Positions 7,562 to 64,000 of a stretch of 64,000 nucleotides of DNA are shown piece after piece (within the stretch, counting starts at the first letter, position 1; every line of letters begins with the position of its first letter). The notes beneath the pieces are model-generated. The model had not been told where the DNA came from, searched no databases, and saw nothing but the letters and a program-made list of their open reading frames with translations. This stretch comes from an uncultured Candidatus Rokubacteria bacterium. GTDB taxonomy: Bacteria > Methylomirabilota > Methylomirabilia > Rokubacteriales > CSP1-6. Both the position numbers and the translations under genes were made by a program. Location: positions 89,485-153,484 of the forward strand of contig CAWIZN010000047.1 of assembly GCA_963840495.1 (NCBI GenBank), in the 5' to 3' direction.

Positions 7562-7611
7562 GCCCGCGCCTGCCTCCGCTCATGGACGCCACGGGCGGCG
7601 GCGGATGCCGA

Positions 7612-7640
7612 TTGACAACGCTGCGGAGCCGGCCATAATG
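7612..7640 (+). promoter_or_regulatory. promoter TTGACA-17-ATAATG, leaderless geometry
   Basis: TTGACA at 7612-7617, a 17-nt spacer, ATAATG at 7635-7640, then 6 nt to ATG 7647. Confidence 0.55.
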
Positions 7641-7646
7641 CGGCTC

Positions 7647-8072: not shown

Positions 8073-8176
8073 GGGGCCATCTGCTCGTTGGCGCCCTCGA
8101 CCGGGCGCTCAACGTCGAGCGCTACGCCTCGCGCCCGGCCTTCGGGCGCCGCCTCGCATCTGACCCCTTCTCGGCC
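8068..8176 (-). repeat. long-hairpin intergenic repeat, copy A1 (reverse orientation)
   Basis: gataaggggccatctgc...ggcgccctcgaccgggcgctcaacgt..ctacgcctcgcgcccggccttcgggcgcc..gcatctgaccccttctcgg. Its first bases supply the TAA stop of the SnoaL-like gene. Confidence 0.8.
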
Positions 8177-8195
8177 GCCTGCCGCGCGCGAGCTC

Positions 8196-18736: not shown

Positions 18737-18741
18737 CCAGG

Positions 18742-18889
18742 AGCCCGTCGGAGAAACCCGCTAGAGCGGCTGAGAAAGGTCCAGATGCGAGGCGGCGCCC
18801 GAAGGCAGCACGGCGAGGCGTACGTTTCTGTACGTTGAGCCGGCTGCCGAGGGCGCCAACGAAGCAGATGGGCCCTTATCATCCTCTAG
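18742..18889 (+). repeat. long-hairpin intergenic repeat, copy A2
   Basis: agcccgtcggagaaacccg + ctagagcggctgagaaaggtccagatgcgaggcggcgcccgaaggcagcacggcgaggcgtac..tacgttgagccggctgccgagggcgccaacgaagcagatgggcccttatcatcctctag. The terminal CTAG carries the TAG stop of the minus-strand PAT gene. Confidence 0.85.
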
Positions 18890-19389
18890 CCGCCTGCGAG
18901 GATCTGCTCCATGATGATGACGTCGACCCACCGGCCGTCGAGCAGGCCCTGCTCGCGGTAGATTCCGACCCGCCGGAAGCCCAGGGCCTCGTAGAGCTGC
19001 ATCCCCCGCTCATTCGTCGGGAACGCCGCGAGGACCATCTTGTGGAACCCGATCCTCCGCGCCTCGTCGATCACCCGTGGGAGCAGCACGCGTCCCACGC
19101 CTCGGCCCCGCTCGTCGCGCTCGACGTAGATCGACAGGTCGGCGACGTGGTCATAGGCCGGCCGAGGATTGAACCGGTTGAGACTGGCCCAGGCGATGAC
19201 GCGCCCGTCGCGCTCGGCCACGAGCACCGGATGGCGCTCGCTCCGTGAGGTCAACCACTCCCGCCGCTCATCCGGCGTCCGGAGCTCCGTCTCGAGGGTC
19301 GCCACGCGATCCTCGATGCCCTGGTTGTAGATCGTTGTGATCGCCGCAATATCACCCTCGCCCGCCCGCCTCACCGTGATCGCGCTCAT
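18886..19389 (-). CDS. GNAT acetyltransferase, phosphinothricin N-acetyltransferase (PAT/Bar)-like
   Basis: ORF 18886..19425(-). MSAITVRRAGEGDIAAITTIYNQGIEDRVATLETELRTPDERREWL..., with the acetyl-CoA motif RGRGVGRVLL. Start set to ATG 19389. Confidence 0.82.
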   Translation of the reverse strand: MSAITVRRAGEGDIAAITTIYNQGIEDRVATLETELRTPDERREWLTSRSERHPVLVAERDGRVIAWASLNRFNPRPAYDHVADLSIYVERDERGRGVGRVLLPRVIDEARRIGFHKMVLAAFPTNERGMQLYEALGFRRVGIYREQGLLDGRWVDVIIMEQILAGG

Positions 19390-19426
19390 GCGATCAGAGT
19401 GAGGCAGGCGGGCGGCATCGTCCAAT

Positions 19427-24202: not shown

Positions 24203-24352
24203 CTAGAGCCTGTCGGAGTGACCCGGCTAGAGCGATGAGAAGGGTCCAGCTGCGAGGCGGCGCCCGATGGCAGCCGCGAGGCGTACTCTCTGTACGTTGA
24301 GCCTGCTGTCGAGGGCGCCTACGCAGCAGATGGGCCCTTCTCATCGCTCTAG
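24203..24352 (+). repeat. long-hairpin intergenic repeat, copy A3
   Basis: ..agcctgtcggagtgacccgg + ctagagcgatgagaagggtccagctgcgaggcggcgcccgatggcagccgcgaggcgtac..tacgttgagcctgctgtcgagggcgcctacgcagcagatgggcccttctcatcgctctag. The terminal CTAG carries the TAG stop of the SDR. It lies between the co-directional SDR and ADH genes. Confidence 0.85.
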
Positions 24353-25110
24353 GCCGCGGAGTGACCGCCGTCGAGAAATACCGTTTGACCGGTCATGTAG
24401 CTCGACGCGGCCGAGGCCAGGTAGACGGCGAGCGGCCCGATCTCTTCCAGGTGGCCGGTGCGGCGCATGGGCACGTCGCGCAGCAGCCGCTCGCGGACCC
24501 TGGCCTGGTCGAACGCCTCCGAGTTCATGTCGGTGACGAACCAGCCGGGCGCGATGGCATTGACCTGGATATTGTGGCGCGCCCATTCCACGCCGAGTGC
24601 GCGGGTCAGCGCGATGACGCCCCCCTTGGACGCCGAGTACGCCGCATAGCCGGGCAGCCCGGCGGCGCCGAGCACGGAGGCCAGGTTGATGACCTTGCCG
24701 GATTCCTGCGCGATCAGCCGTCCCGCGGCGGCTCGGCAGCCGTTGAAGACGCCGATCAGGTTGACCTCGACGGTGCGCCGAAACTCCTCCGGCGCCATCT
24801 CGGCCACCGGCGAGACGCTCGCGACGCCCGAGTTATTGACCACGACGTCGAGCCGGCCCAGCTCAGCCTCCGTGCGCGCGATGAGCGCCTCCACCTGGGC
24901 GTAGTCCGCCACGTCGGTCGGCACGACGATCGCGCGGCGCCCGAGCGCCCGGATCTCGTGGGCGGTCTGCTCGAGCTCGGCCACGGAGCGCGCCGCCACC
25001 GCCACATCGGCCCCGGCGCCCGCCAGCGCCAGCGCCATGGCGCGACCCAGACCGCGGCTCGCGCCAGTGACGACGGCGACCTTGCCGTCGAGGGCGAAGG
25101 CGGAGAGGAC
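24349..25110 (-). CDS. short-chain dehydrogenase/reductase (FabG-like), start unresolved
   Basis: ORF 24349..25038(-) has the YxxxK site (YAAYSASKGG). The Rossmann motif ..FALDGKVAVVTGASRGLGRA lies in frame upstream of the first ATG (25038). No ATG, GTG or TTG occurs between it and the upstream in-frame TGA. Confidence 0.78.
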   Translation of the reverse strand, partial: VLSAFALDGKVAVVTGASRGLGRAMALALAGAGADVAVAARSVAELEQTAHEIRALGRRAIVVPTDVADYAQVEALIARTEAELGRLDVVVNNSGVASVSPVAEMAPEEFRRTVEVNLIGVFNGCRAAAGRLIAQESGKVINLASVLGAAGLPGYAAYSASKGGVIALTRALGVEWARHNIQVNAIAPGWFVTDMNSEAFDQARVRERLLRDVPMRRTGHLEEIGPLAVYLASAASSYMTGQTVFLDGGHSAA

Positions 25111-31656: not shown

Positions 31657-32226
31657 ATGCCGTCACCCTCCGCGGACGGACGGGCCTATCCTCGGGCCGT
31701 GACGCTCGCCGACGGCGGGACCGTCTCCCTGCGCCTCATGTCGACGGACGACGGGGACCGTCTCGTGGCCTTCGCCCGCGAGCTGCCGCCGGACGATCTG
31801 CTCTTCCTGAGCGTCGACATCACCGATCCGGAGGCGGTAGGGCGCTTCATCGAGGGCCTCGAGGCCGGCCGCATCGTCGGGGTGATCGCCGAGGACGCCG
31901 GCGTGACGGCGGGCTACGCCGCGCTCCTGCACCACGGCGTCACGTGGCAGCGCCACCTGGGGGAGATCTTCATCCAGGTGAGCTCGCGCCATCGGTCGCG
32001 CGGGCTCGGCCGCGCGCTCGCGACCGAGATCTCGGCGATCGCCCGCGACCTCGGGCTGCGGAAATTCATCGCGCGCATGACGCCCGATCAGAAGGGCGCC
32101 GTCAGCACCTTCGAGCGCCTCGGGTTCAAGACCGAGGCGCTGCTCCAGGACTTCGTGATCGACGCCGACGGCCGGACGCGCGACATCCTCGTGATGGCGC
32201 GCGATGTGCCGGCCGCCGCTCCCTGA
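31657..32226 (+). CDS. GNAT acyltransferase, storage-synthase-linked subfamily (GNAT-1)
   Basis: ORF 31657..32226(+). ..AYPRAVTLADGGTVSLRLM..LPPDDLLFLSVDITDP..GYAAL..RSRGLGRAL..ARMTPDQKGAVSTFERLGFKTEALLQDFVID.. TATACT at 31643-31648, 8 nt before the ATG. Divergent from phaC1. Confidence 0.8.
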   Translation: MPSPSADGRAYPRAVTLADGGTVSLRLMSTDDGDRLVAFARELPPDDLLFLSVDITDPEAVGRFIEGLEAGRIVGVIAEDAGVTAGYAALLHHGVTWQRHLGEIFIQVSSRHRSRGLGRALATEISAIARDLGLRKFIARMTPDQKGAVSTFERLGFKTEALLQDFVIDADGRTRDILVMARDVPAAAP

Positions 32227-34086: not shown

Positions 34087-34210
34087 TGTGTCGGAGTAGG
34101 CGACATGGACTCACGTGTCAGCGTCTGGCGTTCCGCTTCGAGCGCCGGCTCCGCCGGCGCAATCCCTCCTGGGGGGAGGCATCGGAAGGGGGGCGAAGCC
34201 CCCTCCGAGG
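34087..34210 (-). repeat. mosaic repeat B2 (GTCGGAGTA module plus GC palindrome plus G5/C5 hairpin)
   Basis: gtgtcggagtagg...ttcgagcgccggctccgccggcgcaatccctcctggggggaggcatcggaaggggggcgaagccccctccgagg is the reverse complement of 51034-51123, with one internal insertion. Confidence 0.75.
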
Positions 34211-42071: not shown

Positions 42072-43292
42072 TTGCTCGCCGCCGCGGCCCTCGCCGTGGC
42101 CGTGTTCCCTTGGCGGGGCAGATGGTGGGGCGGATGGATCCTCGCCATCGCCGAGGCCGGGGTCGTGGGCGGCCTCGCCGACTGGTTCGCCGTCACGGCG
42201 CTCTTCCGCCATCCGCTCGGCATCCCCATCCCGCACACCGCGCTCATCCCCGCCAACTGGCAGCTCATGGCCGCGCGCGTCGGCGGCATGGTCGGCGGCC
42301 GCATCCTGACCACCGAGTACGTGACGCGCGAGATCTCGCGCGTGGACGTGGCGAGCCTTCTCGCCCAGGTCGCCGCGCGCGTCAAGCCGGCCGACGTCGA
42401 GCCGCTCGTGGCGACCGTCGCGCGCTGGGCGGCGGCCCAGCTCCCGGCCGGGTCGGCGACGGAGCTGGTGTCCTGGATTCGGCGGCTCCTCCTGAGCCGC
42501 CCGGTCGCGCCCGTGCTCGCGGAGATCATCGACGTGGCGCACCGAAATGGATGGGACCAGCGCCTGGTCGAGGCGCTGGCCCGGACGCTGGTCGAGACGC
42601 TGGACCGTCCCGACGTTCGCGACGCGGTCGGCGAGCTGGTCGACGAGGTCGTCGGCAGCTATCGCCAGCGCATGGGCCTGTACCCGGGCTTCCTGATCCG
42701 CGTCGCCAATATCCTCGGGTTGATCGACCGCGACCGCCTCGTGTCGGCCCTCCGCGCGGCGCTCGCGAAGGTCGCCGACGATCCGGACGATCCGCTCCGG
42801 CGGCGCCTCTCCGAGGCGCTGGCCGAGCTACCGGGTCGCCTGCGCACCGAGCCCGACCTGGCCGCCCGTGTCGAGGCGACCAAGACCGAGCTCCTGACGA
42901 GCCCCGCGCTCAGCGGGCTCATCGAGGACGCCGCCGCTGGGCTGCGCCGTGCCCTGGTCACCGATCTCGGGAGCGATCGGTCGGAGCTGGTGGCGTGGAT
43001 CACCGGCCAGATCGAGCGGGCCCGCGAGACGCTGGTGTCGGACGCAGACGTTCGAAAGAGCCTCGACCGCTGGCTCAAGCAGCACGCCGCAACTCTCGTC
43101 GAACGCTACCAGAATCATCTGGCCGCATTCATCGAGCGCGGCGTCCATGCGCTCGGAGCGGAGGGCGCGGTGCGGCTCATCGAGGAGCACGCGGGCGACG
43201 ATCTCCAGTACATCCGCGTCAACGGCACCGTGGTCGGCGGCCTCGCGGGCGGGGGGATCTACGGCCTCCACCTGCTCCTCAACTTCCTGTGA
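42072..43292 (+). CDS. DUF445-family membrane-associated protein
   Basis: ORF 42072..43292(+). ..GGLADWFAVTALFRHPLGIPIPHTALIPAN.. and the C-terminus ..LQYIRVNGTVVGGLAGGGIYGL.. are typical of DUF445/YjiN-like proteins. TTG start is uncertain. Confidence 0.72.
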   Translation: MLAAAALAVAVFPWRGRWWGGWILAIAEAGVVGGLADWFAVTALFRHPLGIPIPHTALIPANWQLMAARVGGMVGGRILTTEYVTREISRVDVASLLAQVAARVKPADVEPLVATVARWAAAQLPAGSATELVSWIRRLLLSRPVAPVLAEIIDVAHRNGWDQRLVEALARTLVETLDRPDVRDAVGELVDEVVGSYRQRMGLYPGFLIRVANILGLIDRDRLVSALRAALAKVADDPDDPLRRRLSEALAELPGRLRTEPDLAARVEATKTELLTSPALSGLIEDAAAGLRRALVTDLGSDRSELVAWITGQIERARETLVSDADVRKSLDRWLKQHAATLVERYQNHLAAFIERGVHALGAEGAVRLIEEHAGDDLQYIRVNGTVVGGLAGGGIYGLHLLLNFL

Positions 43293-43320
43293 GCTCCGTT
43301 TCGAGGGCCGACCCCTCGAG

Positions 43321-43881
43321 TCACTCGCGAGGCCAGCCGGCCGTGTCCGGCGCGTCGCGGCGAAGGAGGCTCTCGGCGATCGCGCGGCGGATGACGCGCT
43401 TGACGTCGCGGCCGGTGAAGTCGCCCAGGAGGAGCGTCGTGTAGTGGGTGGCGTCCTCGAAGCGCTTGCCGAAGGCGATCAGCCGGTCGATGCGGGCGGC
43501 CGTCGCGGGACGAGCCGCGAGGACGTCGGCGAGGCCCGACAGGAGCGTCATGGTGAGGACAGGCGGCTGCAGCGACTCGAGCACCTCGAGCACGGTCTCC
43601 TCGCGCCCCTGCTCGGCGAGATAGGCAGCGGCGGCGACGCGCGCGGTGTCGGTCGGGCCGAAGCGGAGCACGCCCTCGAACAGCGGCGTGGCGTCGAGGC
43701 CATACCCGCGCGCGAGCTGGGCCATGAAGTCGACGCTCTTTTCCCGCGAGCCCCCCTCGAGCCCGAGGAGCTCGCGATAGACCCGCATCGCCTGCTCGGG
43801 CCCCTGGAGAAACCGCGACATCATGCCGACGAACTGGTTCATGTCGAAAGGCGGAAACGGAGAAGCCGGCTCGGGCGCCAT
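43321..43881 (-). CDS. hypothetical protein
   Basis: ORF 43321..43881(-), natural-looking composition (MAPEPASPFPPFDMNQFVGMMSRFLQGPEQAMRVYRELLGLEGG...). Family not recognised. Confidence 0.5.
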   Translation of the reverse strand: MAPEPASPFPPFDMNQFVGMMSRFLQGPEQAMRVYRELLGLEGGSREKSVDFMAQLARGYGLDATPLFEGVLRFGPTDTARVAAAAYLAEQGREETVLEVLESLQPPVLTMTLLSGLADVLAARPATAARIDRLIAFGKRFEDATHYTTLLLGDFTGRDVKRVIRRAIAESLLRRDAPDTAGWPRE

Positions 43882-44032
43882 GCCGCGAGTATGAGCCCCT
43901 GAAGGCCAGTGTCAACCCGTCGCGCAACGCTGCGCGGCTGCCGCGGCGTGGAGCCCTTTCATTGAGCGGGGACGCGCGACTATACTCGTGGCTCGACCCC
44001 GCGATCCGTCGCCGGCCGGAGGACAGCATCCA

Positions 44033-46099
44033 ATGACGCAGCCGAGCCTCAACCGTCGCCTCACCACGATCGATTCCACCTTCCTCTATCTCGAGAAGGC
44101 CGAGCAGCCCATGCACATCGGAGGCTGCATGCTCTACGAGGGCCGCGTCTCCCGCGAGGAGCTGGCGCGCCTGCTCCTCGACCGACTCCATCGGCTGCCC
44201 CGCTACCGGCAGAAGGTCGTGTTCCCCCCGTTCACCCTCGCGCATCCGACGTGGGAAGACGACCCGGACTTCGACATCGCTCACCACATCGACGAGGTCA
44301 CGCTGCCCGCCCCCGGCGACGACCGCACGATGGCCGAGATCGGCGGCCGCGTGTACGGGGGGATGCTGGATCGCGGCCACCCGCTCTGGAAGCTGATCCT
44401 GCTCCAGGGCCGATCCGACGGCCATACCGCGATCGTCTGGAAGATCCACCACGCGATGATCGACGGCATGTCCGGGGTCGACTTGACCATGGTGCTTCAC
44501 GATCTGACACCCGACGCCGAGCCCCCGACCCCGCCGGCGGCGCCGTGGCAGCCTCGTCCGCTGCCCGATCCGATCACCCTGCTGCAGGATGCCGTGCGCG
44601 ACCGCTTGACCGAGGCCGCCCAGAGCTTCACCGACTCGGCATTCGGCCTGCTCCGCCCGACCGAGATCAGCGCGCGCGCCCGGCAGCTCACGGGGGCCGT
44701 CACGACCGCGCTGCCCTCCTTGCTCAAGCCGGCGCCGAGCACGCCGTTCAATGCCCCGCTGTCGACCGAGCGCCGCTTCGCCTGGCATGGCCTGCCCTTC
44801 GCGGACATCCGCGCGATCCGCTCCGCGCTGGGCGGCACCGTGAACGACGTCGTGCTCGCCATCCTGAGCGGCGCCCTCGGCCGTTACCTCCGCGCGCGGG
44901 GCCTTCCGACCGAGGGCGTCGAGCTGCGCGCGATGTGCCCGGTGAGCATGCGCAGGCCGGACGAGCGCGGCGCCCTCGGCAACCTCGTGTCGATCATGAT
45001 CGCCCCGCTCTATGTCGGCATCGCCGATCCCGTCGCGCGCCTCACGGCCGAGCGCCAGGCCATGGAGCGGCTCAAGGGCGAGGATCAGGCGGGCGGGCTC
45101 TACTCGCTGCAGCAGCTCATGAACGGCGTCCCCGCCGCGTGGCAGGCGCTCGCGGGCGCGATCACCATCCCCCAGACCCTGTTCAATACGGTCTCCACCA
45201 ATGTGCCGGGACCGCAGATCCCGCTCTATCTGGGTGGGCGCCGCCTGCTGAACTGGATTCCGCTCGGGATCTGCTCGACGGGCGTCGGCCTGTTCGTCGC
45301 CATCCTGACCTATGACCGGCGGCTCACGTTCGGCCTCACCTTCGACCCCGCGCTCATCGCCGACGGCTGGGAGATCGCCGATCACCTGCGCCTGGCGTTT
45401 GCGGAGCTGCGGAGCGCCGCCGAGGCGGCCCAACCGGCGGCCTTCGCGGGGGTTGCGCGCACCCGCGGCCGCGGTACTCGCGGACGCGGCGGCCGCGGCG
45501 CGATAGGCACGCCGATGCCGACCGCGGACGCCCCGGGCACGCGCCGCGCCTACCCGCGCGCCATCACGCTCGACAGCGGCACCGCCATCACCCTGCGATT
45601 CATGACCGCCGCCGACGCCACCGCCGTCGTCTCGTTCGCGAAGAGCCTGCCCGCGGACGACCTCCTGTTCCTGCGCACGGACATCACGAGCCCCTCCGTC
45701 GTCGCGCAGTGGGTGAAGAACCTCGCGGCGGGGCGCACCGTCACGGTCATCGCCGAGGCGGGCGGCGAGATGGCCGGCTATGCGAGCCTGCACCACCACG
45801 AGACGAGCTGGCAGCGCCACCTGGGCGAGATTCGCATCCAGGCGGGGCAGCGCTATCGCTCGCAGGGCCTCGGACGGGGGCTCGCGGGAGAGGTCTTCGC
45901 GCTGGCCACGGAGCTGGGGCTGCGCAAGATCGTCGCGCAGATGACGGTCGATCAGAAGGGCGCGATCGCCACCTTCGAGCGGCTCGGCTTCCGCGCCGAG
46001 GCGCTCCTGTCGGATTTCGTGATCGACCGCGACGGGCGCACGCGCGATCTCATGATCATGGCCTACGACGTCGACGGGTTGACCGAGCACCTGGACTGA
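44033..46099 (+). CDS. wax ester synthase/diacylglycerol acyltransferase (WS/DGAT), read as one ORF with a C-terminal GNAT (GNAT-3)
   Basis: ORF 43988..46099(+). MTQPSLNRRLTTIDSTFLYLE.., catalytic HHAMIDG, ..NVPGPQIPLYLGG.. Then an R/G-rich linker and the GNAT domain. Start set to ATG 44033 (GGAGGA 10 nt upstream; a TATACT -10 lies at 43981-43986). Confidence 0.88.
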   Translation: MTQPSLNRRLTTIDSTFLYLEKAEQPMHIGGCMLYEGRVSREELARLLLDRLHRLPRYRQKVVFPPFTLAHPTWEDDPDFDIAHHIDEVTLPAPGDDRTMAEIGGRVYGGMLDRGHPLWKLILLQGRSDGHTAIVWKIHHAMIDGMSGVDLTMVLHDLTPDAEPPTPPAAPWQPRPLPDPITLLQDAVRDRLTEAAQSFTDSAFGLLRPTEISARARQLTGAVTTALPSLLKPAPSTPFNAPLSTERRFAWHGLPFADIRAIRSALGGTVNDVVLAILSGALGRYLRARGLPTEGVELRAMCPVSMRRPDERGALGNLVSIMIAPLYVGIADPVARLTAERQAMERLKGEDQAGGLYSLQQLMNGVPAAWQALAGAITIPQTLFNTVSTNVPGPQIPLYLGGRRLLNWIPLGICSTGVGLFVAILTYDRRLTFGLTFDPALIADGWEIADHLRLAFAELRSAAEAAQPAAFAGVARTRGRGTRGRGGRGAIGTPMPTADAPGTRRAYPRAITLDSGTAITLRFMTAADATAVVSFAKSLPADDLLFLRTDITSPSVVAQWVKNLAAGRTVTVIAEAGGEMAGYASLHHHETSWQRHLGEIRIQAGQRYRSQGLGRGLAGEVFALATELGLRKIVAQMTVDQKGAIATFERLGFRAEALLSDFVIDRDGRTRDLMIMAYDVDGLTEHLD
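45515..46099 (+). other. GNAT-3 module (domain of, or separate gene after, the WS/DGAT)
   Basis: MPTADAPGTRRAYPRAITLDSGTAITLRFM..LPADDLLFLRTDITSP..GYASL..RSQGLGRGL..AQMTVDQKGAIATFERLGFRAEALLSDFVID.. It begins like GNAT-1 (MPSPSADGRAYPRAV..). A TAG in the +1 frame ends 8 nt before this ATG (45504-45506). Confidence 0.8.
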
Positions 46100-46149
46100 G
46101 CCCGGGCACTGGCGGCGAGCCTCAGCGTCGGCTCGGACTGCACGCTGCC

Positions 46150-46945
46150 GACGCTGCGCCGGCAACCGAGCGCCGCCGGCCGGGGCCGCGAGCGCGGCCA
46201 GGCGCTCCGCGATGATCCGGTACACCTTCGGGTTCCACGCCAGTCCCACGTGGGTGCCCGACACCTCGACGTCAGCCTCGGCATCGTCATTGATGCACGA
46301 CCGCCAGTCCACGATGCCGTCCGTCTTGGTGTAGATCGCGATCTGGGGAACAGAGGACGGCAGCGGCGCCTGGAGCGCCTTGACGGTGTCGCACTGACAC
46401 GCCGCGGTGAAGCAATCCGGGCGATCGTCCCGCTGCTCCGCCCGGCTCCGGATGCGGGCGCGCACCGTGCTCGCCGCTTGCATCACGAGCGGATGCGACC
46501 GGATGCCACGGAACGGAGACCCGAGCGTGATCACGGAGGCGATCCGGTCCGGGCGGCGCACCGCGGCCGAGCGCGCCAGCATGCCTCCAAGGCTGTGGCC
46601 GATGAGATGCACCGGGCGGCCCGTCGACGCCCGCGCCTCCTCGACCGTGCCGAGCAGTCGCCCGACCAGGACATCCAGGCACTCCGCGTTTCTGCCGATG
46701 CGCGAGAGAAAGGGCCGGTAGCCGATGCGGCCGAGCCAGAAGTACATCTCGAGGAGATAGACGTCGCTGCCGAGGAAGCCGGGCACCACGACGACCGGCG
46801 CCCCGTCACCGCGGGGGATGCCGCACCCGTACAGAACGGGTGAGGTTCGAAGGGCCAGCCAATCGAAGCCGAACAGCGCCTCGCGCCAGATCGGGACGGA
46901 AGCCGGCCGCTCTTCCACATCGAAGTGCACCGTCGAGCGCGCCAT
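46150..46945 (-). CDS. alpha/beta hydrolase, lipase/esterase-like; 3' end unresolved
   Basis: First roughly 255 aa of ORF 43259..46945(-). ..VVVVPGFLGSDVYLLEMYFWLGRIGYRPFL.., nucleophile box GHSLGG, ..ITLGSPFRG.., ..GTHVGLAWNPKVYRIIAERL.. The frame has no stop and continues as antisense shadow of the WS/DGAT gene, so the low coordinate is a guess. Confidence 0.7.
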
Positions 46946-47054
46946 GAGTTCGAACCCCCTCCCGCGTCCTTGCGGCGAGTACCACGCAGAGTGTCACACA
47001 GATGACGCACCCTGGCAAATGTATAGCGCGGCGCGCATTCACGGGAGAGGGCTA

Positions 47055-47075
47055 GAAGGGGGCAGCGCCCCCTTC
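47055..47075. repeat. G5/C5 mini-hairpin module
   Basis: gaagggggcagcgcccccttc, immediately left of repeat A4. Confidence 0.6.
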
Positions 47076-47084
47076 CGGTTCGCG

Positions 47085-47251
47085 CTAGGAGCCTGTCGGA
47101 GTAACCCGGCTAGAGCGAGGAGAAGGGTCCAGCTGCGAGGCGGCGCCCGGCGGCCGCCGGCGCAGCGCGTAGCGCGTTTCTGACGGTCTGAGCCGTCGCG
47201 TGCTCGAGGCCGGCGCCGACGAACGCAGATGGGCCCTTCTCCTCGCTCTAG
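47085..47251 (+). repeat. long-hairpin intergenic repeat, copy A4 (longer, divergent centre)
   Basis: gctaggagcctgtcggagtaacccgg + ctagagcgaggagaagggtccagctgcgaggcggcgcccgg...gacgaacgcagatgggcccttctcctcgctctag. The terminal CTAG carries the TAG stop of the SCP2 gene. Confidence 0.8.
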
Positions 47252-47568
47252 ACCTGGAACAGGCCCCCGATCTTCATCGCCAGGCCCATGTCGCCCTTGA
47301 GCTTGAGCTTGCCCGACATGAACGCCATCTGCCCCGACAGCTTGCCCCCGACCATGTCGAGCCAGTCCTGGGACGACATGGAGAGCGTGAGGCTGGGGGC
47401 CGCGGCCGCCCCCGGATTCACCGCGCAGGTCCCGTCCTTGATCACCGCGTTCCAGGTTCCGCCCTGATCGCCGGTGATGTCGTACTGGATGGTCGCGTTC
47501 ACTCCCGCGGCCTTCTCGGCGCGGAACCGGCCCGCCATCGCATCGAACGTCTCCTTGACTGTCGGCAT
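47248..47568 (-). CDS. SCP2 sterol/lipid-carrier domain protein
   Basis: Last 106 aa of ORF 47248..47949(-). MPTVKETFDAMAGRFRAEKAAGVNATIQYDITGDQGGTWNAVIKDGTC...GKLSGQMAFMSGKLKLKGDMGLAMKIGGLF. GGAGGAGGGG lies upstream. Confidence 0.8.
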   Translation of the reverse strand: MPTVKETFDAMAGRFRAEKAAGVNATIQYDITGDQGGTWNAVIKDGTCAVNPGAAAAPSLTLSMSSQDWLDMVGGKLSGQMAFMSGKLKLKGDMGLAMKIGGLFQV

Positions 47569-47603
47569 GAGAGTACCCCTCCTCCGGACGTTGTTCCGGA
47601 TCG

Positions 47604-48353
47604 CTAGAAGGTGAACAGATCCATTCCACCCGTGACCGTGAGCACGGCACCGGTGATGTACCGCGCGCGCTCCGAGCACAGAAACGCGATGGCGTGGGCC
47701 ACGTCCGCCGGCTCCCCTTCCCGCTGCATCGCCACGCGCTTGACCATCCGCTCGTACAGGGGCGAGAGATTCGCGTTGGGGCCGATGATGCCGGGGGCGA
47801 TCACGTTGGACGTCACGTTGTGCCGCGCGCCCTCGAGGGCCACCGACTTGGCGAATCCGATCACGCCCATCTTGCTCGTCGAGTAGGCGGCCTGGCCGAA
47901 GCCGCCCATCAGCCCCGCGATCGAGGCCATGCAGATCACCCGGCCCCACTTGCGTTCCCGCATGCCGGGGAACACCGCCTTGGTGACATTGTACGTTCCC
48001 GTCAGATTGATCTTCAGGTTCAGATCCCAGTCCTCGTCGCCCATGTCCTTGAGCTGGCCCATCGTGTAGATGAAGCCCGCATTGTTCACGCAGATGTCCG
48101 CGGGCCCGACCTCGCTCTCCGCCCGTGGAACGATCTCGGCGAGCGCCGCGCGGTCCGTGATGTCGACGGCATAGCCGCGCGCCGTCCCGCCGCCGCCGAC
48201 GATCTCGTTGGCCGTCTCGGCCGCGCCCTCTCCGTTCAGGTCGAGGATGATGAGCTTGCAGCCCTCCGCGGCCAGCGTGAGGCAGTCCTGCTTGCCGAGG
48301 CTTCGCGCCCCGCCCGTGACCAGTGCCACCTTACCCGCGATGCCGAGGTCCAT
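47604..48353 (-). CDS. short-chain dehydrogenase/reductase (3-oxoacyl reductase FabG-like)
   Basis: ORF 47604..48353(-), intact. GKVALVTGGARSLG, NNAG, YSTSK. Confidence 0.88.
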   Translation of the reverse strand: MDLGIAGKVALVTGGARSLGKQDCLTLAAEGCKLIILDLNGEGAAETANEIVGGGGTARGYAVDITDRAALAEIVPRAESEVGPADICVNNAGFIYTMGQLKDMGDEDWDLNLKINLTGTYNVTKAVFPGMRERKWGRVICMASIAGLMGGFGQAAYSTSKMGVIGFAKSVALEGARHNVTSNVIAPGIIGPNANLSPLYERMVKRVAMQREGEPADVAHAIAFLCSERARYITGAVLTVTGGMDLFTF

Positions 48354-48426
48354 CAGCTAGCTCGCTCCGCTCGCACTCATCTCGGATCCGCTCGCCTCGC
48401 CTTCGGCTGCGCCTCGCTCGCCGAGA

Positions 48427-48571
48427 ACCCGTCGGGAAACCCGGCTAGAGCGATGAGAAGGGTCCAGCTGCGAGGCGGCGCCCGAAGGCCGCACGCGAGG
48501 CGTAGTCGCTCTACGTTGAGCGTGCGGCCGAGGGCGCCAACGAAGCAGATGGGCCCTTCTCATCGCTCTAG
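48427..48571 (+). repeat. long-hairpin intergenic repeat, copy A5 (best-formed)
   Basis: acccgtcgggaaacccgg + ctagagcgatgagaagggtccagctgcgaggcggcgcccgaaggccgcacgcgaggcgtag tcg ctctacgttgagcgtgcggccgagggcgccaacgaagcagatgggcccttctcatcgctctagc. Outer stem of 19 bp and central stem ggccgcacg/cgtgcggcc. The terminal CTAG carries the TAG stop of the crotonase gene. Confidence 0.88.
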
Positions 48572-49341
48572 CGGCCCTTGAACTCTGCCGGGCGCTTGGC
48601 GAAGAAGGCCTGGATGCCCTCGCTCGCGTCGTCGGTCTTGAGCGATTGGACGAACGCGCGAATCTCGATCTCGATGGCCTGGTCGATGGGCGCCTGGAGA
48701 CCGTCGTCCACGGCCTCGATGATGAGCCGCGTGGCGACGGGCGGCCGCTTGCCCAGCTCGCGGCAGAGCGCCTTGGCGTCGGCGAGCGTCTCGCCCTCCT
48801 TCGAGAGCCGGTTGACGAGGCCGATGCGGTGGCACTCGGCGGCGGGGATCTGCGTGCCGAGGATGAGGTACTCGAGGGCCAGGCCTCGTCCGACGAGCCG
48901 CGGAAGGCGCTGGCTGCCCCCGAAGCCAGGCGTGATTCCCAGGTTCGACTCCGTCTGCCCCATCCGGGCGCCCTCCTTGAGGATGCGGATGTGGCAGCCC
49001 ATCGCGATCTCACAGCCCCCGCCCAGCGCATGGCCGTTGATGGCGGCCACCACGGGCTTGGGAAAGCGCTCGATCCGCCGCACGACGCTATTGCCGAACC
49101 GGATGAAGGTCGCCACATCGGGCCCCGAGAAGGCATTGCCGAGATCGGCGCCCGCGCAGAAGATCCTGTCGCCCCCTCCCGTGATGATGACCGACCTGAC
49201 CGCGCCGTCGGCCTCCACGTCGGACAGCGCCGCGTTCAGCTCGCGCATCAGCGTCTCGCTGATCGCATTGGCGGGCGGACGGTTGAGCGTGATCACCGCG
49301 TACGTCTCCTCGCGATCGAGGACGATGGTCTCGTACGGCAT
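48568..49341 (-). CDS. enoyl-CoA hydratase/isomerase (crotonase family)
   Basis: ORF 48568..49341(-), intact. ..ITLNRPPANAI.., ..FCAGADL.., ..AAINGHALGGGCEIAMGC.. Confidence 0.9.
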   Translation of the reverse strand: MPYETIVLDREETYAVITLNRPPANAISETLMRELNAALSDVEADGAVRSVIITGGGDRIFCAGADLGNAFSGPDVATFIRFGNSVVRRIERFPKPVVAAINGHALGGGCEIAMGCHIRILKEGARMGQTESNLGITPGFGGSQRLPRLVGRGLALEYLILGTQIPAAECHRIGLVNRLSKEGETLADAKALCRELGKRPPVATRLIIEAVDDGLQAPIDQAIEIEIRAFVQSLKTDDASEGIQAFFAKRPAEFKGR

Positions 49342-49380
49342 GGGAGCGCGTCTCCTTCTGTGGAGTGCGGATCGCGGGAG

Positions 49381-49978
49381 CTAGCTCGCGCCACGCGGCG
49401 CGGCAGCAGCGCCTTGCAGGAAGATGTCCACCACGGTGTCCGCCGTGCCGACGAGGTGGTAGCCGCGCTTGCCGAGCACCCACGAGGTCGCCATCTGATC
49501 CATGGCGCCGAAGAGCATCTTCGTGGCGACCTTCACGGGCAGGTCGGCGGAGAAGCGTCCCGGCCGCCGCGCCCTCCTCGAAGACGGAGGCGATCAGGGC
49601 GAAATACGCGGCGATCTCTTGGTTGGCCGGGCCGCGGAAGAGCTTCTGGCCCTGCCGCAGCTCCACCTGCACCACCTCGGCCAGCTCTGGGTTGTCCTCC
49701 AGGATCCGGAAATGGAGCCGGACGAGCCGCCGCAGCTTGGCGACGGCGTCGCGCTCCTCGGCAATGGCCTGGCGCACCGTCTCCACGAACCCCGCCATCT
49801 TCTCCCGGAAGAGCGTGATCAGGATCTCTTCCTTGGTGTCGAAGTACAGGTAGATGGTGCCCGCGGCGATCCCCGCCTCGCGCGCGATGTCGGAGACGCG
49901 CGCGTTGAAATATCCCTTTCGGGCGAAGACCCGAAGGGCGGCCTCGATGATCTGCTGTGGCTTCTCGGGATCGCGCAT
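49381..49978 (-). CDS. TetR-family transcriptional regulator, frameshifted as sequenced
   Basis: From ORF 49088..51202(-): MRDPEKPQQIIEAALRVFARKGYFNARVSDIAREAGIAAGTIYLYFDTKEEIL... After ..VFEEGAAAG (about 49552-49564) the natural sequence continues in another frame (RFSADLPVKVATKMLFGAMDQMATSWVLGKRGYHLVGTADTVVDIFLQG..*). Confidence 0.8.
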
Positions 49979-50056
49979 GACGAGCGGTGAACCGTGGTTC
50001 ATTCTAGGGAGGCCCCGTCCGCATGTCAAACTCGCGGCGCTTACCAGGCGCTCGCC

Positions 50057-50085
50057 TTGACTCACCCTGGCCGCCCGCGTACGAT
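50057..50085 (+). promoter_or_regulatory. promoter TTGACT-17-TACGAT, leaderless geometry
   Basis: TTGACT at 50057-50062 and TACGAT at 50080-50085, then 7 nt to ATG 50093. Confidence 0.5.
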
Positions 50086-50092
50086 CCCGCCC

Positions 50093-51028
50093 ATGCACAT
50101 CAAATACCGGATCGGGATCATGCCCGGCCCCTGGCCGAAGGGACGAGAGGGCGTCGATTTCCTGTGGGCGCTCACCGACTTCCTCGAGCGGAGCGGGATC
50201 GACTCGCTCTGGCTCTCCGACCGCCTGTCCTCGCCGACGCCTGTGCCCGAGGTCATGACGACGCTGGCCGCGGTGGCCGCGCGGACGCAGACGCTCAAGT
50301 TCGGCCCGAGCGTGATCGTGCTGCCCTACCGGACTCCGGTGGTGGCGGCCAAGGAGATGGCGACGCTCGACTGGCTCTCCCGCGGCCGCTTCTTCCCGGC
50401 GGTGGGCGTCGGCGTCGAGCTGCCGCGTGAGTTCGACGCCTCCGGCGTGCCGTTCAAGGAGCGCGGCCGGCGCACCGACGAGGCCATCCACGTCATTCGC
50501 CTGCTCTGGACCCAGGACGAGGTGAGCTTCCAGGGCGAGTTCTACAAGCTCGACCGCGTGACGATCTTTCCCAAGCCCTGGCAGACCCCGCCCCCCATCT
50601 GGATCGGCGGCAAGAGCGAGGCGGCCATCAAGCGCACCGCGCGGGTCGGCGACGGCTGGATGCCCTCGTTCATCACGCCCGAGGAGCTCCGTGTGGGAGT
50701 CGACCGCGTGCAGGAGCTGGCGGCCGCGGCCGGGCGCGAGGTGCCCGAAGACCACTTCGGCACGCTGATCAACTTCGCGATCGCGGAGAGCAGCGAGGCC
50801 GCCCTCGCCATGGCCCAGCCCTTCATCCAGCGCGGGCGCGTCGACGAGGCCACGATGAAGCAGTGCACGGCCTTCGGGCCGGTCGACACGGTGATCGCGA
50901 AGGTCGAGGAGTACGTGAAGGCGGGCGCGTCGAAGTTCATCCTGCGCCCCCTCTGCCCCTCCGAGCGCATGCTCGAGCAGCTCGCCGTCATCGCCGAGCA
51001 CGTGGCCCCCGAGTACCACCGCCGCTAG
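50093..51028 (+). CDS. luciferase-like monooxygenase family oxidoreductase (probably an F420-dependent LLM class)
   Basis: ORF 49994..51028(+) from ATG 50093. MHIKYRIGIMPGPW..., ..LWLSDRL.., ..SVIVLPYRTPVVAAKEMATLDWLSRGRF..GVGVG.., ..IWIGGKSEAAIKRTARVGDGWMP.. Confidence 0.82.
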   Translation: MHIKYRIGIMPGPWPKGREGVDFLWALTDFLERSGIDSLWLSDRLSSPTPVPEVMTTLAAVAARTQTLKFGPSVIVLPYRTPVVAAKEMATLDWLSRGRFFPAVGVGVELPREFDASGVPFKERGRRTDEAIHVIRLLWTQDEVSFQGEFYKLDRVTIFPKPWQTPPPIWIGGKSEAAIKRTARVGDGWMPSFITPEELRVGVDRVQELAAAAGREVPEDHFGTLINFAIAESSEAALAMAQPFIQRGRVDEATMKQCTAFGPVDTVIAKVEEYVKAGASKFILRPLCPSERMLEQLAVIAEHVAPEYHRR

Positions 51029-51033
51029 ACGAC

Positions 51034-51123
51034 TCGGAGGGGGGCTCCGCCCCCTTCCGATGCCTCCCCCGAACAGCGGATTGCGCCGGCGAAGCCGGCG
51101 CTCGAACACGGTTACTCCGACAC
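51034..51123 (+). repeat. mosaic repeat B1 (G5/C5 hairpin plus GC palindrome plus GTTACTCCGAC module)
   Basis: tcggaggggggctccgcccccttccgatgcctcccccgaacagcggattgcgccggcgaagccggcgctcgaacacggttactccgacac. It is the reverse-complement match of 34087-34210. The module gttactccgac is the complement of the gtcggagtaac found at the left edge of the A copies. Confidence 0.75.
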
Positions 51124-51200
51124 GCTCCTCGCCAGTCGAGGCCTCGTCGGCTGGCTCCGAGTCTGCCCCGACGTTCGCCCGGCCAGGATATACTGCGCGC

Positions 51201-52160
51201 ATGCGTCAGCCTACGGCGATTGCCCTCCTCGCGCTCTTTCTCTGCGGTTGCTCCGTGCTCTCGATCGACTTCCAGCCGCGTATCCGGCCCCTCGAGGAGG
51301 AAACACTCGAGGGCCACGGGCGCGCGAAGATCCTCCTCGTCGACCTCTCCGGCGTGCTCCAGGACGAGTCGGTCAGCTTCTCCCTCGGCGCTCCCCCGCC
51401 CCGCGTGCCTCTGCTCGCGCGGGTCCGCGAGGAGCTCGAGAAGGCCGAGAAAGACGACCGGGTCCGGGCGCTGATCGTCAAGATCAATAGCCCGGGCGGC
51501 ACCATCACGGCCTCCGACATCCTCTACCGCGAGATCGTCGAGTTCAAGGCGCGCCGGAAGATTCCGGTGACGGCGGTCATCATGGACGTCGGGGCCTCGG
51601 GCGGCTACTACGTGGCGCTGGCCGCCGACACCATCGTCGTCCATCCGACTTCGGTGACGGGGAGCCTGGGCGTCGTCATGCTCACGGTCAATGCCCAGGG
51701 CCTCATGGAGAAGATCGGCGTCGCCCCGCTCGCCATCAAGTCGGGGCCGATGAAGGATGCCGGCTCCCCCTTCCGCCCCCTCACCCAGCCGGAGCTCCAG
51801 GTGTTCCAGGGCGTCATCGACGACATGTACGGCCGCTTCGTTCGGCTGATCGCCGAATCGCGGAAGATTCCCGAGGAGCGCGTGCGATCGCTCGCCGACG
51901 GGCGCATCTACACCGCCCAGCAGGCGCTCGCCCTCGGCCTCGTCGACCGGATCGCCTACCTCGACGACGTCGTCCGTACCACGAAAAAGGCGCTCGGCGT
52001 CGATGAAGCGCGCGTCGTCATGTACCACCGTCCCCGGGAATATCGCGCGACGATCTACTCGGAAGCGGCGACCGTCCCCGGATCGAGCGGCGCCCTCGGG
52101 CAGCTCACGGGCTTCCTCGGTGGGCCCGGGCCGCGCTTCATGTACCTCTGGTGGCCCTGA
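51201..52160 (+). CDS. sppA: signal peptide peptidase SppA (36K type), lipoprotein-like signal
   Basis: ORF 51060..52160(+) from ATG 51201. MRQPTAIALLALFLCGCS.., ..ALIVKINSPGGTITASD.., ..MDVGASGGYYVALAAD.. TATACT at 51189-51194, 6 nt before the ATG. Confidence 0.86.
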   Translation: MRQPTAIALLALFLCGCSVLSIDFQPRIRPLEEETLEGHGRAKILLVDLSGVLQDESVSFSLGAPPPRVPLLARVREELEKAEKDDRVRALIVKINSPGGTITASDILYREIVEFKARRKIPVTAVIMDVGASGGYYVALAADTIVVHPTSVTGSLGVVMLTVNAQGLMEKIGVAPLAIKSGPMKDAGSPFRPLTQPELQVFQGVIDDMYGRFVRLIAESRKIPEERVRSLADGRIYTAQQALALGLVDRIAYLDDVVRTTKKALGVDEARVVMYHRPREYRATIYSEAATVPGSSGALGQLTGFLGGPGPRFMYLWWP

Positions 52161-52291
52161 GCGCAGGATGCTGAAAAAGGCCCATCTGCTTCGTTGGCGC
52201 CCTCGGCAGCCGGCTCAACGTAGAGCGACTACGCCTCGCCGGCTGCCTTCGGGCGCCGCCTCGCATCTGGACCTTTTTGAGCATCCTGCGC
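52161..52291 (-). repeat. long-hairpin intergenic repeat, copy A6 (reverse orientation, different outer stem)
   Basis: gcgcaggatgctgaaaaaggcccatctgcttcgttggcgccctcggcagccggctcaacgta..tacgcctcgccggctgccttcgggcgccgcctcgcatctggacctttttgagcatcctgcgc. It starts 1 nt after the sppA TGA. Confidence 0.85.
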
Positions 52292-52323
52292 GTTCTGGCA
52301 GAGGCGCCTAGGCTCAGCAGGCT

Positions 52324-53178
52324 TTACGTCTTCGTCTCGCTCGATCCCCGGAGCTGGTAGATCGCCTTGTGGCGGATGTGAGCGACGGGGCGCTTGCCCT
52401 CGGCCAGGAGCAAGAGGTCGAGCTCGACGAACTGGTGTCCCTTGCGCTCGAAGAGGGTCCCGACCCGCGCCCGCGTCTCGAGGCGCTCGCCGACGCGAAG
52501 CGCGCCCAGGTGCTGCCCCTCGCTCTCCGCGTGGATCCACGGGCTCACGATGACATTGCGGCTCAAGGCCCGATTGGCCTCGTGCAGATACAACCCGGGA
52601 TGGGCGGGCGCGGCCGGGCCGCCATAGAGCGCGAGCGGCTCGCCGACGCGGTCGAGGAAGGCCCGCGCCGTCGCCGCATCCAAGACAAGCTCGGGCGTGC
52701 CCAGCACGGGCCGGGCGGCCAGGACCTCCCGGCTCACCCGAGGGCGCTCGTCGGGCAGCGGCGCCGCGGGATAGTTCCCCGGATCCGGTGCCGCTGGGCT
52801 CGTGCCCTCCGTGAGGCCGAAGGTCGCCGTGGCGCACAGCTCACCGGCGCTGTTCACCGCGCGCGCCTCGATCATCACGCCCTGGCCCGTCAGCGAAGCC
52901 ACCGCGGCTTCGATCACGACCGGCTCGTCGAAGTAGATGGGGCTCAGAAAGCGCGCCCTGAAGGTGCCGCGCTCGAGCCACGGCACGCCGAGCGCGGCCA
53001 CGACGGGATGGGTCATCCACGCGTATACCGTCACGCCGGGCACGAGGCCGCCGCGAAAGCCGAGCTCGCGGGCGAGCCCGTCCTCGTGGATCTTGTTCTC
53101 CGTCACGTCCGCCGGCATCTGGGCGCTCACGCGGTGGCGGGGGAGCGTGCTGCCGGCGGCGAGCGTCGCGAGGCTCAT
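52324..53178 (-). CDS. MaoC-like/hotdog-fold protein
   Basis: ORF 52324..53217(-) from ATG 53178 (GGAGGA upstream). ..NKIHEDGLARELGFRGGLVPGVTVYAWM.. and a second hotdog half ..LYLHEANRALSRNVIVSPWIHAESE.. Confidence 0.68.
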   Translation of the reverse strand: MSLATLAAGSTLPRHRVSAQMPADVTENKIHEDGLARELGFRGGLVPGVTVYAWMTHPVVAALGVPWLERGTFRARFLSPIYFDEPVVIEAAVASLTGQGVMIEARAVNSAGELCATATFGLTEGTSPAAPDPGNYPAAPLPDERPRVSREVLAARPVLGTPELVLDAATARAFLDRVGEPLALYGGPAAPAHPGLYLHEANRALSRNVIVSPWIHAESEGQHLGALRVGERLETRARVGTLFERKGHQFVELDLLLLAEGKRPVAHIRHKAIYQLRGSSETKT

Positions 53179-63277: not shown

Positions 63278-63830
63278 ATGCTATTCGATACATGTCACGC
63301 ATCGGATACCTGTCGCGGGCCGCGCGCGGCGCGCGGCCCGTGGCTCGCGGCCCTGGTCGGCTTCGTCGTCTCCCTCCTCGTCCTCGTCCCGAACGCCGCC
63401 TCCCCTTACGACACCCGGAGCCTCACGGCGATCGTCACGCAGGTCGTCGACGGGGACACGATCTACGTGCGCGTCGACGGGCGAATCGAGAAGGTCCGGT
63501 ATATCGGGATGGACACGCCCGAGACCAAGCATCCGGTCAAAGGTAGAGAACCGGGCGGCATGGAGGCGACCGCCCTCAATCGCCGCCTCGTGATGGGCAA
63601 GACGGTCCGGCTCGAGCTCGATGTGCGGGAGCGCGACCGCTACCGGCGGCTGCTCGCCTACGTGTACGTGGGGGACCTCATGGTCAACGCGGAGCTGGTC
63701 AGGCTCGGCTACGCCCACGCCATGACGGTGCCGCCCAACGTGGCCCACGCGAGCCGCTTCGTGAGCCTCGAGCGGCAGGCGCGGGAGGCCGGCCGCGGCC
63801 TGTGGGCGGCCGTCCGCCGGGGGGCGATAA
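63278..63830 (+). CDS. thermonuclease (SNase-like) with an N-terminal TM/signal; stop lost as sequenced
   Basis: Own translation from ATG 63278 (not in the track: no stop before the window end). ..LAALVGFVVSLLVLVPNAASPYDTRSLTAIVTQVVDGDTIYVRVDGRIEKVRYIGMDTPETKHP...RYRRLLAYVYVGDLMVNAELVRLGYAH..ERQAREAGRGLWAA.. Removing one G from the G6 run (63819-63824) puts the repeat-borne TAA (63828-63830) in frame. Confidence 0.75.
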
Positions 63831-63934
63831 GGGGCCATCTGCTTCGTTGGCGCGCTCGTCCGGGCGCTCAACGTACAGAGAGTACGCCTCGCGCCCGGCC
63901 TTCGCGCGCCGCCTCGCAGCTGACCCCTTCTCGC
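63826..63934 (-). repeat. long-hairpin intergenic repeat, copy A7 (reverse orientation)
   Basis: gataaggggccatctgcttcgttggcgcgctcgtccgggcgctcaacgta..gtacgcctcgcgcccggccttcgcgcgccgcctcgcagctgaccccttctcgcc. Confidence 0.82.
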
Positions 63935-64000
63935 CGCCCGGCGCCGTTCCCACCGTGGACGAGTCGCCCGGAAAGACGGTGGCGTGGTTCCGTTCGAGCG

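Follow-up and report, generated by a model that had tools for sequence, protein, structure and literature searches.

Repetitive extragenic palindromes (REPs) and the REPINs associated with RAYT genes are present in hundreds of extragenic copies, form long hairpins with a conserved tetranucleotide at their foot and are located at the 3' ends of genes and inside operons. MITEPsy1 of Pseudomonas syringae, a MITE (miniature inverted-repeat transposable element) of the IS5 family, is likewise short, non-coding and present in multiple copies, possesses inverted-repeat ends and is flanked by CTAG on both sides after insertion. An element resembling both systems is found in the 64-kb stretch of DNA analysed here (hereafter the window), which corresponds to C47:89485-153484 of the draft genome G000 of an uncultured Candidatus Rokubacteria bacterium (4.83 Mb, 83 contigs, 69.8% G+C, 80% complete). 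The window contains seven copies of this element, four in forward and three in reverse orientation, and throughout the source genome its hairpin abuts the stop codon of a converging gene in most copies. The element is probably a non-autonomous mobile element of the MITE/REP type, which integrates at CTAG and is polar towards gene ends. Its mobility is supported by presence and absence at orthologous loci, near-identical young copies, arrays whose units have a CTAG in common and repeated independent hits of the same site.

A published precedent for CTAG targeting exists, and insertion sequences (ISs) of the IS630 family target CTAG and duplicate TA. In contrast to the MITEs of CTAG-targeting ISs, however, no transposase gene with matching ends was found for the element, its terminal stem varies while its core is fixed, and it combines an asymmetric 21-nt tail with a strict gene-end polarity, which to our knowledge has not been reported for such MITEs. 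REPs have a GTAG foot and are arranged as doublets of 20-35-nt units, whereas the element has CTAG and consists of a single imperfect 131-nt hairpin with an internal-loop core; moreover, REPs and REPINs depend on a RAYT (Y1) gene, which G000 lacks. PATEs of the IS200/IS605 type insert without duplication 3' of a fixed tetranucleotide, and insertion next to a tetranucleotide would be compatible with the element, but they lack inverted ends, carry two subterminal hairpins and have an orientation tied to replication, whereas the element has one hairpin and an orientation that is unrelated between neighbouring copies. Mycobacterial interspersed repetitive units (MIRUs) are 46-101-bp tandem direct repeats encoding small open reading frames (ORFs); they are similar in that they occupy operon spacers of a high-G+C genome, are oriented with transcription and overlap flanking stop and start codons with their ends, but unlike the element they are neither hairpins nor flanked by CTAG. 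QMITE1 and QMITE2 of Coxiella burnetii, the Correia elements of Neisseria and enterobacterial ERIC sequences are hairpin MITEs of 100-150 nt, which are co-transcribed with their neighbours, and QMITE insertions into functional genes are all located at 3' ends with overlaps of 1-50 bp (PMC5896051). The element shares no sequence similarity with these MITEs, and its association with stop codons is the rule (~70%) and its orientation fixed. Taken together, it is short (~155 nt) and non-coding, has many dispersed copies and differs in presence between orthologous loci, and it represents a new family of the known MITE/REP kind. What sets it apart is its homing to CTAG and gene ends, the stop codons with which it closes reading frames, and a strict polarity that is independent of copy age and common to a second repeat family, family B, described below.

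The element consists of an imperfect hairpin of ~131 nt and a 21-nt tail on one side only, the consensus of which is GAGCCTGTCGGAGAAACCCGG (hereafter the tail box). The commonest layout is CTAG, followed by the tail and CTAGAGCGATGAGAAGGGTCCAG ... CAGATGGGCCCTTATCATCGCTCTAG; in the main subfamily, the hairpin reads CTAGAGCGATGAGAAGGGTCCAG...CAGATGGGCCCTTCTCATCGCTCTAG. Copies in G000 were tallied with nhmmer and a hidden Markov model (HMM) built from the seven window copies, and HMM coordinates were used since stem ends derived by automatic helix extension were too noisy. This yielded 332 non-overlapping matches, 200 of them full-length, and ~250 copies overall; ~46 pairs of half matches correspond to long-apex copies, in which the apex is replaced by ~78 nt. 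In this size class of ~195 nt, of which C43:59791-59983 and C76:105259-105452 are examples, model columns ~71-84 are swapped for an insert unrelated in sequence. The copies of the main subfamily have a median identity of 93% to the subfamily consensus, and the top third reaches at least 95%. No Rfam family reaches its gathering threshold in the window. An exact 22-mer of the core is present in many metagenome-assembled genomes (MAGs) of Rokubacteria and Methylomirabilota, and judged by this match the element is widespread in the Rokubacteria lineage.

The original prediction that the repeat ends prefer stop codons is borne out by the genome-wide tally. Genes of G000 were called with a home-made codon-usage model, which covers 78% of the genome and whose start positions are unreliable. 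Of the 200 full-length copies, 143 (71.5%) have a converging stop codon no more than 11 nt away from the hairpin end, compared to 2.9% for random intergenic placement (~25-fold; binomial p ~1e-170), and the stop falls exactly on the terminal CTA (offset 0) in 53 of 200 copies (26.5%) versus 0.18% at random. In a further 25 of the 200 copies the stop is a TGA inside the arm at position -8, in 14 it is a TAA inside the arm at -11, and in ~45 it lies 1-11 nt outside the arm, whereas the tail end is at a stop in only ~3. TAG accounts for 63% of the stops adjacent to the element, compared to 29% genome-wide, where the same gene calls give 64% TGA and 7% TAA. It is hardly conceivable that this association is due to chance or is an artefact of assembly or gene calling. 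The quality of the gene caller would allow for such an artefact; however, the effect is ~25-fold over random placement, all genes concerned in the window are confirmed by Pfam, orthologous alignments agree, and so does a test that uses ORFs only, in which a long, coding-like ORF terminates no more than 11 nt from the hairpin end in 33 of 42 full copies from other Rokubacteria. The frames of virtual empty sites reconstructed for the -8 copies gave mixed answers, for which the gene caller is partly responsible.

Among the palindromic tetranucleotides of G000, CTAG (observed/expected 0.12) and TTAA (0.06) are the most depleted; GATC and TCGA are over-represented three-fold or more. Only 1655 CTAG sites are present, an eight-fold depletion, and 457 of these (28%) are located inside or beside repeat elements, while 31% of the element-free sites are stop codons. 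Copies of the main subfamily terminate in CTAG on the right in 99 of 104 cases and are preceded by CTAG on the left in 41 of 82; the first base of the left tetranucleotide varies (C, T, G, A), whereas the right end is constant, and the units of head-to-tail tandem arrays have one CTAG in common. In the reading favoured here, the dominant and youngest subfamily would integrate at CTAG and end up flanked by CTAG on both sides. Since CTAG is scarce and about one third of the surviving sites are the C+TAG of a stop, targeting of CTAG alone would place the element on stop codons, and the stop would be the target and older than the element.

This view is in line with orthologous junctions of related genera, from which the element is absent at 12 of 12 loci examined. 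Copy A5 of the window separates a crotonase gene from a gene for a short-chain dehydrogenase/reductase (SDR), and relatives carry CTAG, CTAC or TTAT at this insertion point without the element, for example ...GTCCAC-CTAG-cggccc in genome G036 and GGCCTAG in another relative. The closest relative, G003, has a 50-nt spacer as in G000, then CTAC, and its empty A5 site reads GCTCGCC/CTAC/cgcccc; A5 was thus inserted next to CTA(G/C), and no duplication is seen. The SCP2 gene, which ends at copy A4 in the window, ends in ...GGCTAG/acctggaac in G036 without an element, and several other orthologs have CTAC. In G015, this stop is occupied by an element of a different subfamily, and in two further genomes by a family-B repeat, so that in other genomes the SCP2 stop was hit in independent events by another subfamily and family B. 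At locus C6_55432, a relative has cacccg-CTAG-aaccgg where G000 has CTAG[element]CTAG, and C20_8444, C7_23291 and C42_30352 follow the same pattern; in several cases, relatives have CTAC where G000 has CTAG. Several of the junctions that are split by copies in G000 are only 0-7 nt long in relatives, and the downstream genes are intact. Because the empty sites carry the same TAG stop within a single CTAG or CTAC, this stop is ancestral and the element homed to CTAG, as anticipated by the suggestion that insertion is targeted at stop-codon/CTAG sites. Given CTAG on both sides in 41 of 82 main copies and a single CTAG at the C6_55432 empty site, three arrangements would fit, namely duplication of 4 bp, duplication of 2 bp (TA) or an element-borne CTAG without duplication.

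The origin of the stop codon differs, however, in copies of another type. By the original criteria, orthologs in which the stop predates the element would count against the prediction, and this is the outcome for copies of the CTAG type, at which the stop is target rather than cargo; in ~20% of the copies, the native gene end has been replaced and the stop in use is the element's own TGA or TAA. Six non-CTAG copies illustrate the latter type; relatives are element-free and have a native TGA a few codons further on, whereas in G000 the element has replaced 2-8 terminal codons together with the native TGA, such that the genes end in ...GGN CGA TAA. The orthologs of the SnoaL-like gene at copy A1 have a different end with a native TGA and no element in four relatives. 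The possibility that the outer stem is copied from the local gene end was rejected, since unrelated genes all end in ...GCA GGN GGC CGA TAA and their orthologs lack that sequence. In gene sense, the arm of the main subfamily reads C TAG / CTA GAG CGA TGA TAA; in the third frame there is no stop before the distal CTAG, ~50 codons on, which very few genes use (~3 copies have stop offsets near -148). The gene-proximal arm would therefore close one frame with TAG and a second with TGA-TAA, and in the main subfamily the distal CTAG would close the third, so that insertions clipping the last codons of a gene would be tolerated and the gene would end on the stop of the element.

The element is strictly oriented relative to its neighbours. 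In co-directional contexts, the hairpin faces the upstream gene in 107 copies and the opposite direction in 15 (p = 3e-18). Convergent contexts harbour 69 copies (35%), compared to 13% of all intergenic regions, and divergent contexts only 6; between convergent genes, the polarity is 51:13 near a stop and 12:2 exactly on a stop. Polarity peaks in the youngest third of the main subfamily (27:1), where 31 of 37 copies are at a stop; this argues that the bias is present at or immediately after integration and against an orientation built up slowly by selection. An orientation set by replication was rejected, as neighbouring copies within 30 kb have the same orientation in 62 cases and the opposite in 52. 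As CTAG is palindromic, it cannot give a direction either, and an asymmetric extended target does not fit: the sole asymmetry in the flanks is that C follows the right CTAG in 66% of copies versus 27% at free CTAG stops, yet the mirror-image G is commoner at free sites (47%), from which the opposite polarity would be expected. It is plausible that at operon junctions there is a selective reason, in that the unstructured 21-nt tail, and not the foot of a 60-bp helix, precedes the next start codon; between convergent genes, however, the polarity is retained although no such reason exists there. The polarity thus reflects either oriented integration or immediate selection. In the favoured reading, integration, or survival right after it, would be polar relative to the gene, with the hairpin abutting the stop and the moderately U-rich, unstructured tail facing downstream as a spacer before the next start codon.

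Copy number, stop proximity, the polarity with its independence of copy age and the empty orthologous sites are shown by the data. The enzyme responsible would most likely be a trans-acting, CTAG-specific transposase as in the IS5 or IS630 families, and the length of the target duplication as well as any effect on the mRNA we infer within this reading. Several observations weigh against integration of this kind. G000, at 80% completeness, contains neither a Y1_Tnp (PF01797) nor a DDE_3 gene. Its sole IS of the DDE_Tnp_1 type (C61:38438-40390; ~1.95 kb), which encodes a frameshifted IS4/IS5-like transposase (452 + 167 aa), interrupts the terminal CTAG of two elements arranged in tandem and has CTAG on either side, but its inverted ends (CYGAAGTTCCC..GACAG) match the tail box at 13 of 21 positions only and are a lead rather than a match. 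This IS also contains an internal stretch of low G+C content. Among 60 other genomes of the same family, DDE_3 is present in 27 and Y1 in 14, and 20 fetched loci (12 DDE_3, 8 Y1; ~1.5 kb on each side) contain neither an element nor a tail box. The absence of a partner is weak evidence, since MAGs are incomplete. Candidates for an autonomous partner were rejected as well: no hairpin halves more than 200 nt apart enclose a gene in G000, and the sole inverted pair of copies encloses housekeeping genes. Furthermore, the outermost stem differs among subfamilies and the core is invariant, whereas the termini are the conserved part of a classical DDE MITE; a palindromic target is by itself unable to set an orientation; and at subfamilies without CTAG ends, the sites in relatives show neither TA nor CTAG. 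The stop proximity of 71% exceeds the 34% that free CTAG sites give, and A5 lacks the usual left CTAG although the empty site in G003 is clean.

Alternatively, the element could move as single-stranded DNA by means of an HUH/Y1-type enzyme, like REPIN/RAYT or IS200/IS605 PATEs, which we consider unlikely. The folded strand would be pasted 3' of CTAG without duplication, the element would bring its own terminal CTAG, and the polarity would result from the target strand exposed by transcription, not replication, at gene ends. In support of this, a central core containing the internal loops hardly varies among 237 distinct copies and lies between covarying stems, three G.T wobbles are conserved on the forward strand, and the forward strand is the stabler fold in 161 of 161 copies (mean -90 vs -75 kcal/mol). 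The constant right end and variable first base of the left tetranucleotide, the insertion of A5 beside CTA(G/C) without duplication, the CTAC in relatives where G000 has CTAG, and the polarity of the youngest copies point in the same direction. However, G000 lacks Y1, a Y1 gene is present in just 14 of the 61 family genomes, and the fetched Y1 loci are element-free; the element forms one long hairpin instead of two subterminal ones; and its orientation is not tied to replication as in IS200/IS605. The strand asymmetry, moreover, cannot be counted as separate evidence of selection, since it may have been inherited from the single master from which all copies descend, and at variable pairs G.T exceeds A.C only by 209 to 83, with 77 of the G.T cells stemming from a single pair. 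With regard to terminal inverted repeats as in MITEs, the hairpin arms are long inverted repeats; the true left terminus, the 21-nt tail, has only a loose match to the right end in main-subfamily copies and a good one in a few GCAGGATGC copies. A three-way covariation between tail, 5' arm and 3' arm was also considered and is not significant (5.55 of 8 with the own arm vs 5.37 with the arms of other subfamilies).

A related and equally unlikely idea is that integration is directed by gene expression, such that the element and family B are pasted as folded single strands beside CTAG, on the strand that is exposed behind the stop codon, where ribosome-free transcription begins. If true, the element would be a portable 'gene-end cassette' made up of frame-closing stops, a hairpin, a U-rich tail and a spacer, and transcription, not target sequence or replication, would dictate its polarity; we know of no description of such an expression-directed target choice for bacterial transposable elements.

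Family B has the layout and polarity of the element. It is an inverted repeat of ~98 nt with the structure CTAG/GAGCGTGTCGGAGTAACCGCCGTTCGAGCGCCGGCTTCGCCGGCGC...GGGGGGCGGAGCCCCCCTCCGAG + 3-5 nt + CTAG/TTAG, which has 109 matches in G000. Two copies are located in the window (51034-51123 and 34087-34210); their core is unrelated to that of the element, and the tail box, here GAGCGTGTCGGAGTAAC, is in common. In 44 full copies, the hairpin end is at a stop in 27 and the box end in 7, and the G/C-hairpin end lies 2-5 nt from the converging stop in these 27 of 44.

The common layout and polarity of two families with unrelated cores would also be expected if both acted as RNA, and it is possible, but on balance doubtful, that the element is an exapted gene-end RNA module, the stable post-stop hairpin and U-rich tail of which keep it placed and oriented. 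This alternative is compatible with mobility; by analogy with Escherichia coli REPs that lie no more than 15 nt from a stop, the module could terminate or attenuate transcription, block 3' exonucleases or slow the termination of translation. REPs this close to the stop are reported to stall ribosomes and to affect the translation of the upstream gene (PMC12306157). The polarity of the element relative to transcription is consistent with such a role, as is the preserved pairing: changes in the diverged outer stem (pairs 9-14) and in the apical stem (pairs 50-54 and pair 65) are compensated, amounting to 808 compensated cells in the 237 copies. Read as mRNA, main-subfamily hairpins continue into CCGGGUUUCUCC... 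and those of other subfamilies into GAGUUUUUC or GAUUUCUUC, and TTT occurs within 12 nt past the hairpin in 34% of copies versus 2% on the other strand; the U content of the tail is no more than moderate, with UUUCU in the main subfamily. Copies also split operon junctions that were once tight while the downstream genes stay intact. On the other hand, transcripts of the upstream gene correspond to the reverse strand of the element, and in all 161 copies the mRNA therefore bears the weaker, though still very stable, fold, and the three conserved G.T wobbles are on the strand other than that of the mRNA. A consensus terminator scan of positions 46500-53000 calls no terminator, in part because the scan requires a short stem and loop, and the polarity is strongest in the youngest copies, which is unlike slow selective sorting.

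The individual copies of the window reflect both types of stop. All four forward copies contain the TAG of a minus-strand gene in their terminal CTAG, as had been claimed from the ORF list, and the genes concerned are confirmed by Pfam. Copy A5 starts with a degenerate tail box of 21-22 nt (GAGAACCCGTCGGGAAACCCGG, 48423-48444), followed by a hairpin of the main subfamily (48445-48571), which folds with -110 kcal/mol on the plus and -95 kcal/mol on the minus strand; for 48440-48573, the plus-strand fold of -110 kcal/mol corresponds to z = -13.9. Of its terminal CTAG (48568-48571, minus strand), 48568-48570 is the TAG of the enoyl-CoA hydratase (crotonase) gene (48568-49341, minus strand; Pfam ECH_1, E = 1.8e-61), the mRNA of which, being transcribed from the minus strand upstream, bears the reverse complement of the A5 hairpin. 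The SDR gene between A5 and A4 (47604-48353, minus strand; Pfam) has its start codon 4-7 nt from the crotonase stop in relatives. Copy A4 comprises CTAG and the tail box GAGCCTGTCGGAGTAACCCGG (47085-47109, plus strand; left CTAG at 47085-47088) and a hairpin with a divergent apex (47110-47251; -102 kcal/mol), in the terminal CTAG of which (47248-47251) the SCP2 gene ends (47248-47568, minus strand; Pfam SCP2). The A4 apex also differs from that of the long-apex class. Just distal to A4, at 47055-47078, a small G5/C5 hairpin (GAAGGGGGCAGCGCCCCCTTC) follows CTAG, and similar mini-hairpins end family B. Downstream of A4 lies an alpha/beta-hydrolase gene, previously termed 'lipase-like' (46106-46945, minus strand; Pfam Abhydrolase_1, E = 1.3e-8).

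The remaining forward copies are A2 (18741-18889), the terminal CTAG of which (18886-18889) contains the stop of a GNAT acetyltransferase gene (18886-19425, minus strand; Pfam), and A3 (24203-24352), with the stop of another SDR gene (24349-25038, minus strand; Pfam) in its CTAG at 24349-24352 and a zinc-dependent alcohol dehydrogenase gene downstream on the same strand. The neighbours of A3, A4 and A5 are thus co-directional and have the identities originally assigned to them. Since several copies split junctions that are very short (0-7 nt) in relatives, it is plausible that they are transcribed within polycistronic mRNAs.

Among the reverse copies, A1 (8066-8185, minus strand; outer stem GCAGGCGGCCG) holds the stop of the SnoaL-like gene (7353-8072, plus strand) in its hairpin arm, where the gene ends in ...GCA GAC GGC CGA TAA, and A6 (52161-52291, minus strand; subfamily GCAGGATGCTC; -89 kcal/mol) begins one base behind the TGA (52158-52160, plus strand) of an SppA-like S49 peptidase gene (Pfam Peptidase_S49); both had been proposed. 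The proposal that the nuclease gene at copy A7 (63822-63945, minus strand; subfamily GCCGGGCGGCG) would use the TAA at 63828-63830, in contrast, does not hold. The SNase ORF, which starts from 63146 and matches Pfam SNase up to residue 221, is out of frame with this TAA by one base, passes through the hairpin in the only frame that the arm leaves open and runs past the end of the window (64000); use of the TAA would need the G6 run just upstream (63819-63824) to be one G shorter. Either this homopolymer contains an assembly error or the element encodes a real C-terminal extension.

In the neighbourhood of these copies, the plus strand of 44033-46099 encodes a 688-aa fusion of WS_DGAT_cat and WS_DGAT_C (wax-ester synthase/DGAT) with a C-terminal GNAT acetyltransferase domain. 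A 1228-aa shadow ORF (43259-46945) lies on the opposite strand, and only its first ~280 residues, which belong to the alpha/beta-hydrolase, look real. The 300-nt repeat D1 (31857-32156 vs 45721-46020, 73% identity) falls within the GNAT part of the fusion.

A strict, age-independent polarity at a palindromic target is unexplained by ordinary cut-and-paste transposition; it suggests that gene expression provides a cue for orientation, or else that selection acts immediately and very strongly. The element rewrites the C-termini of ~40 genes and splits dozens of formerly tight operon junctions. Together with its share of the CTAG sites, this affects gene calls, operon predictions and stop codon statistics of Rokubacteria MAGs. 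If the elements terminate transcription or stabilise transcripts, this large uncultured soil lineage would possess gene-end signals that are supplied by a mobile element.

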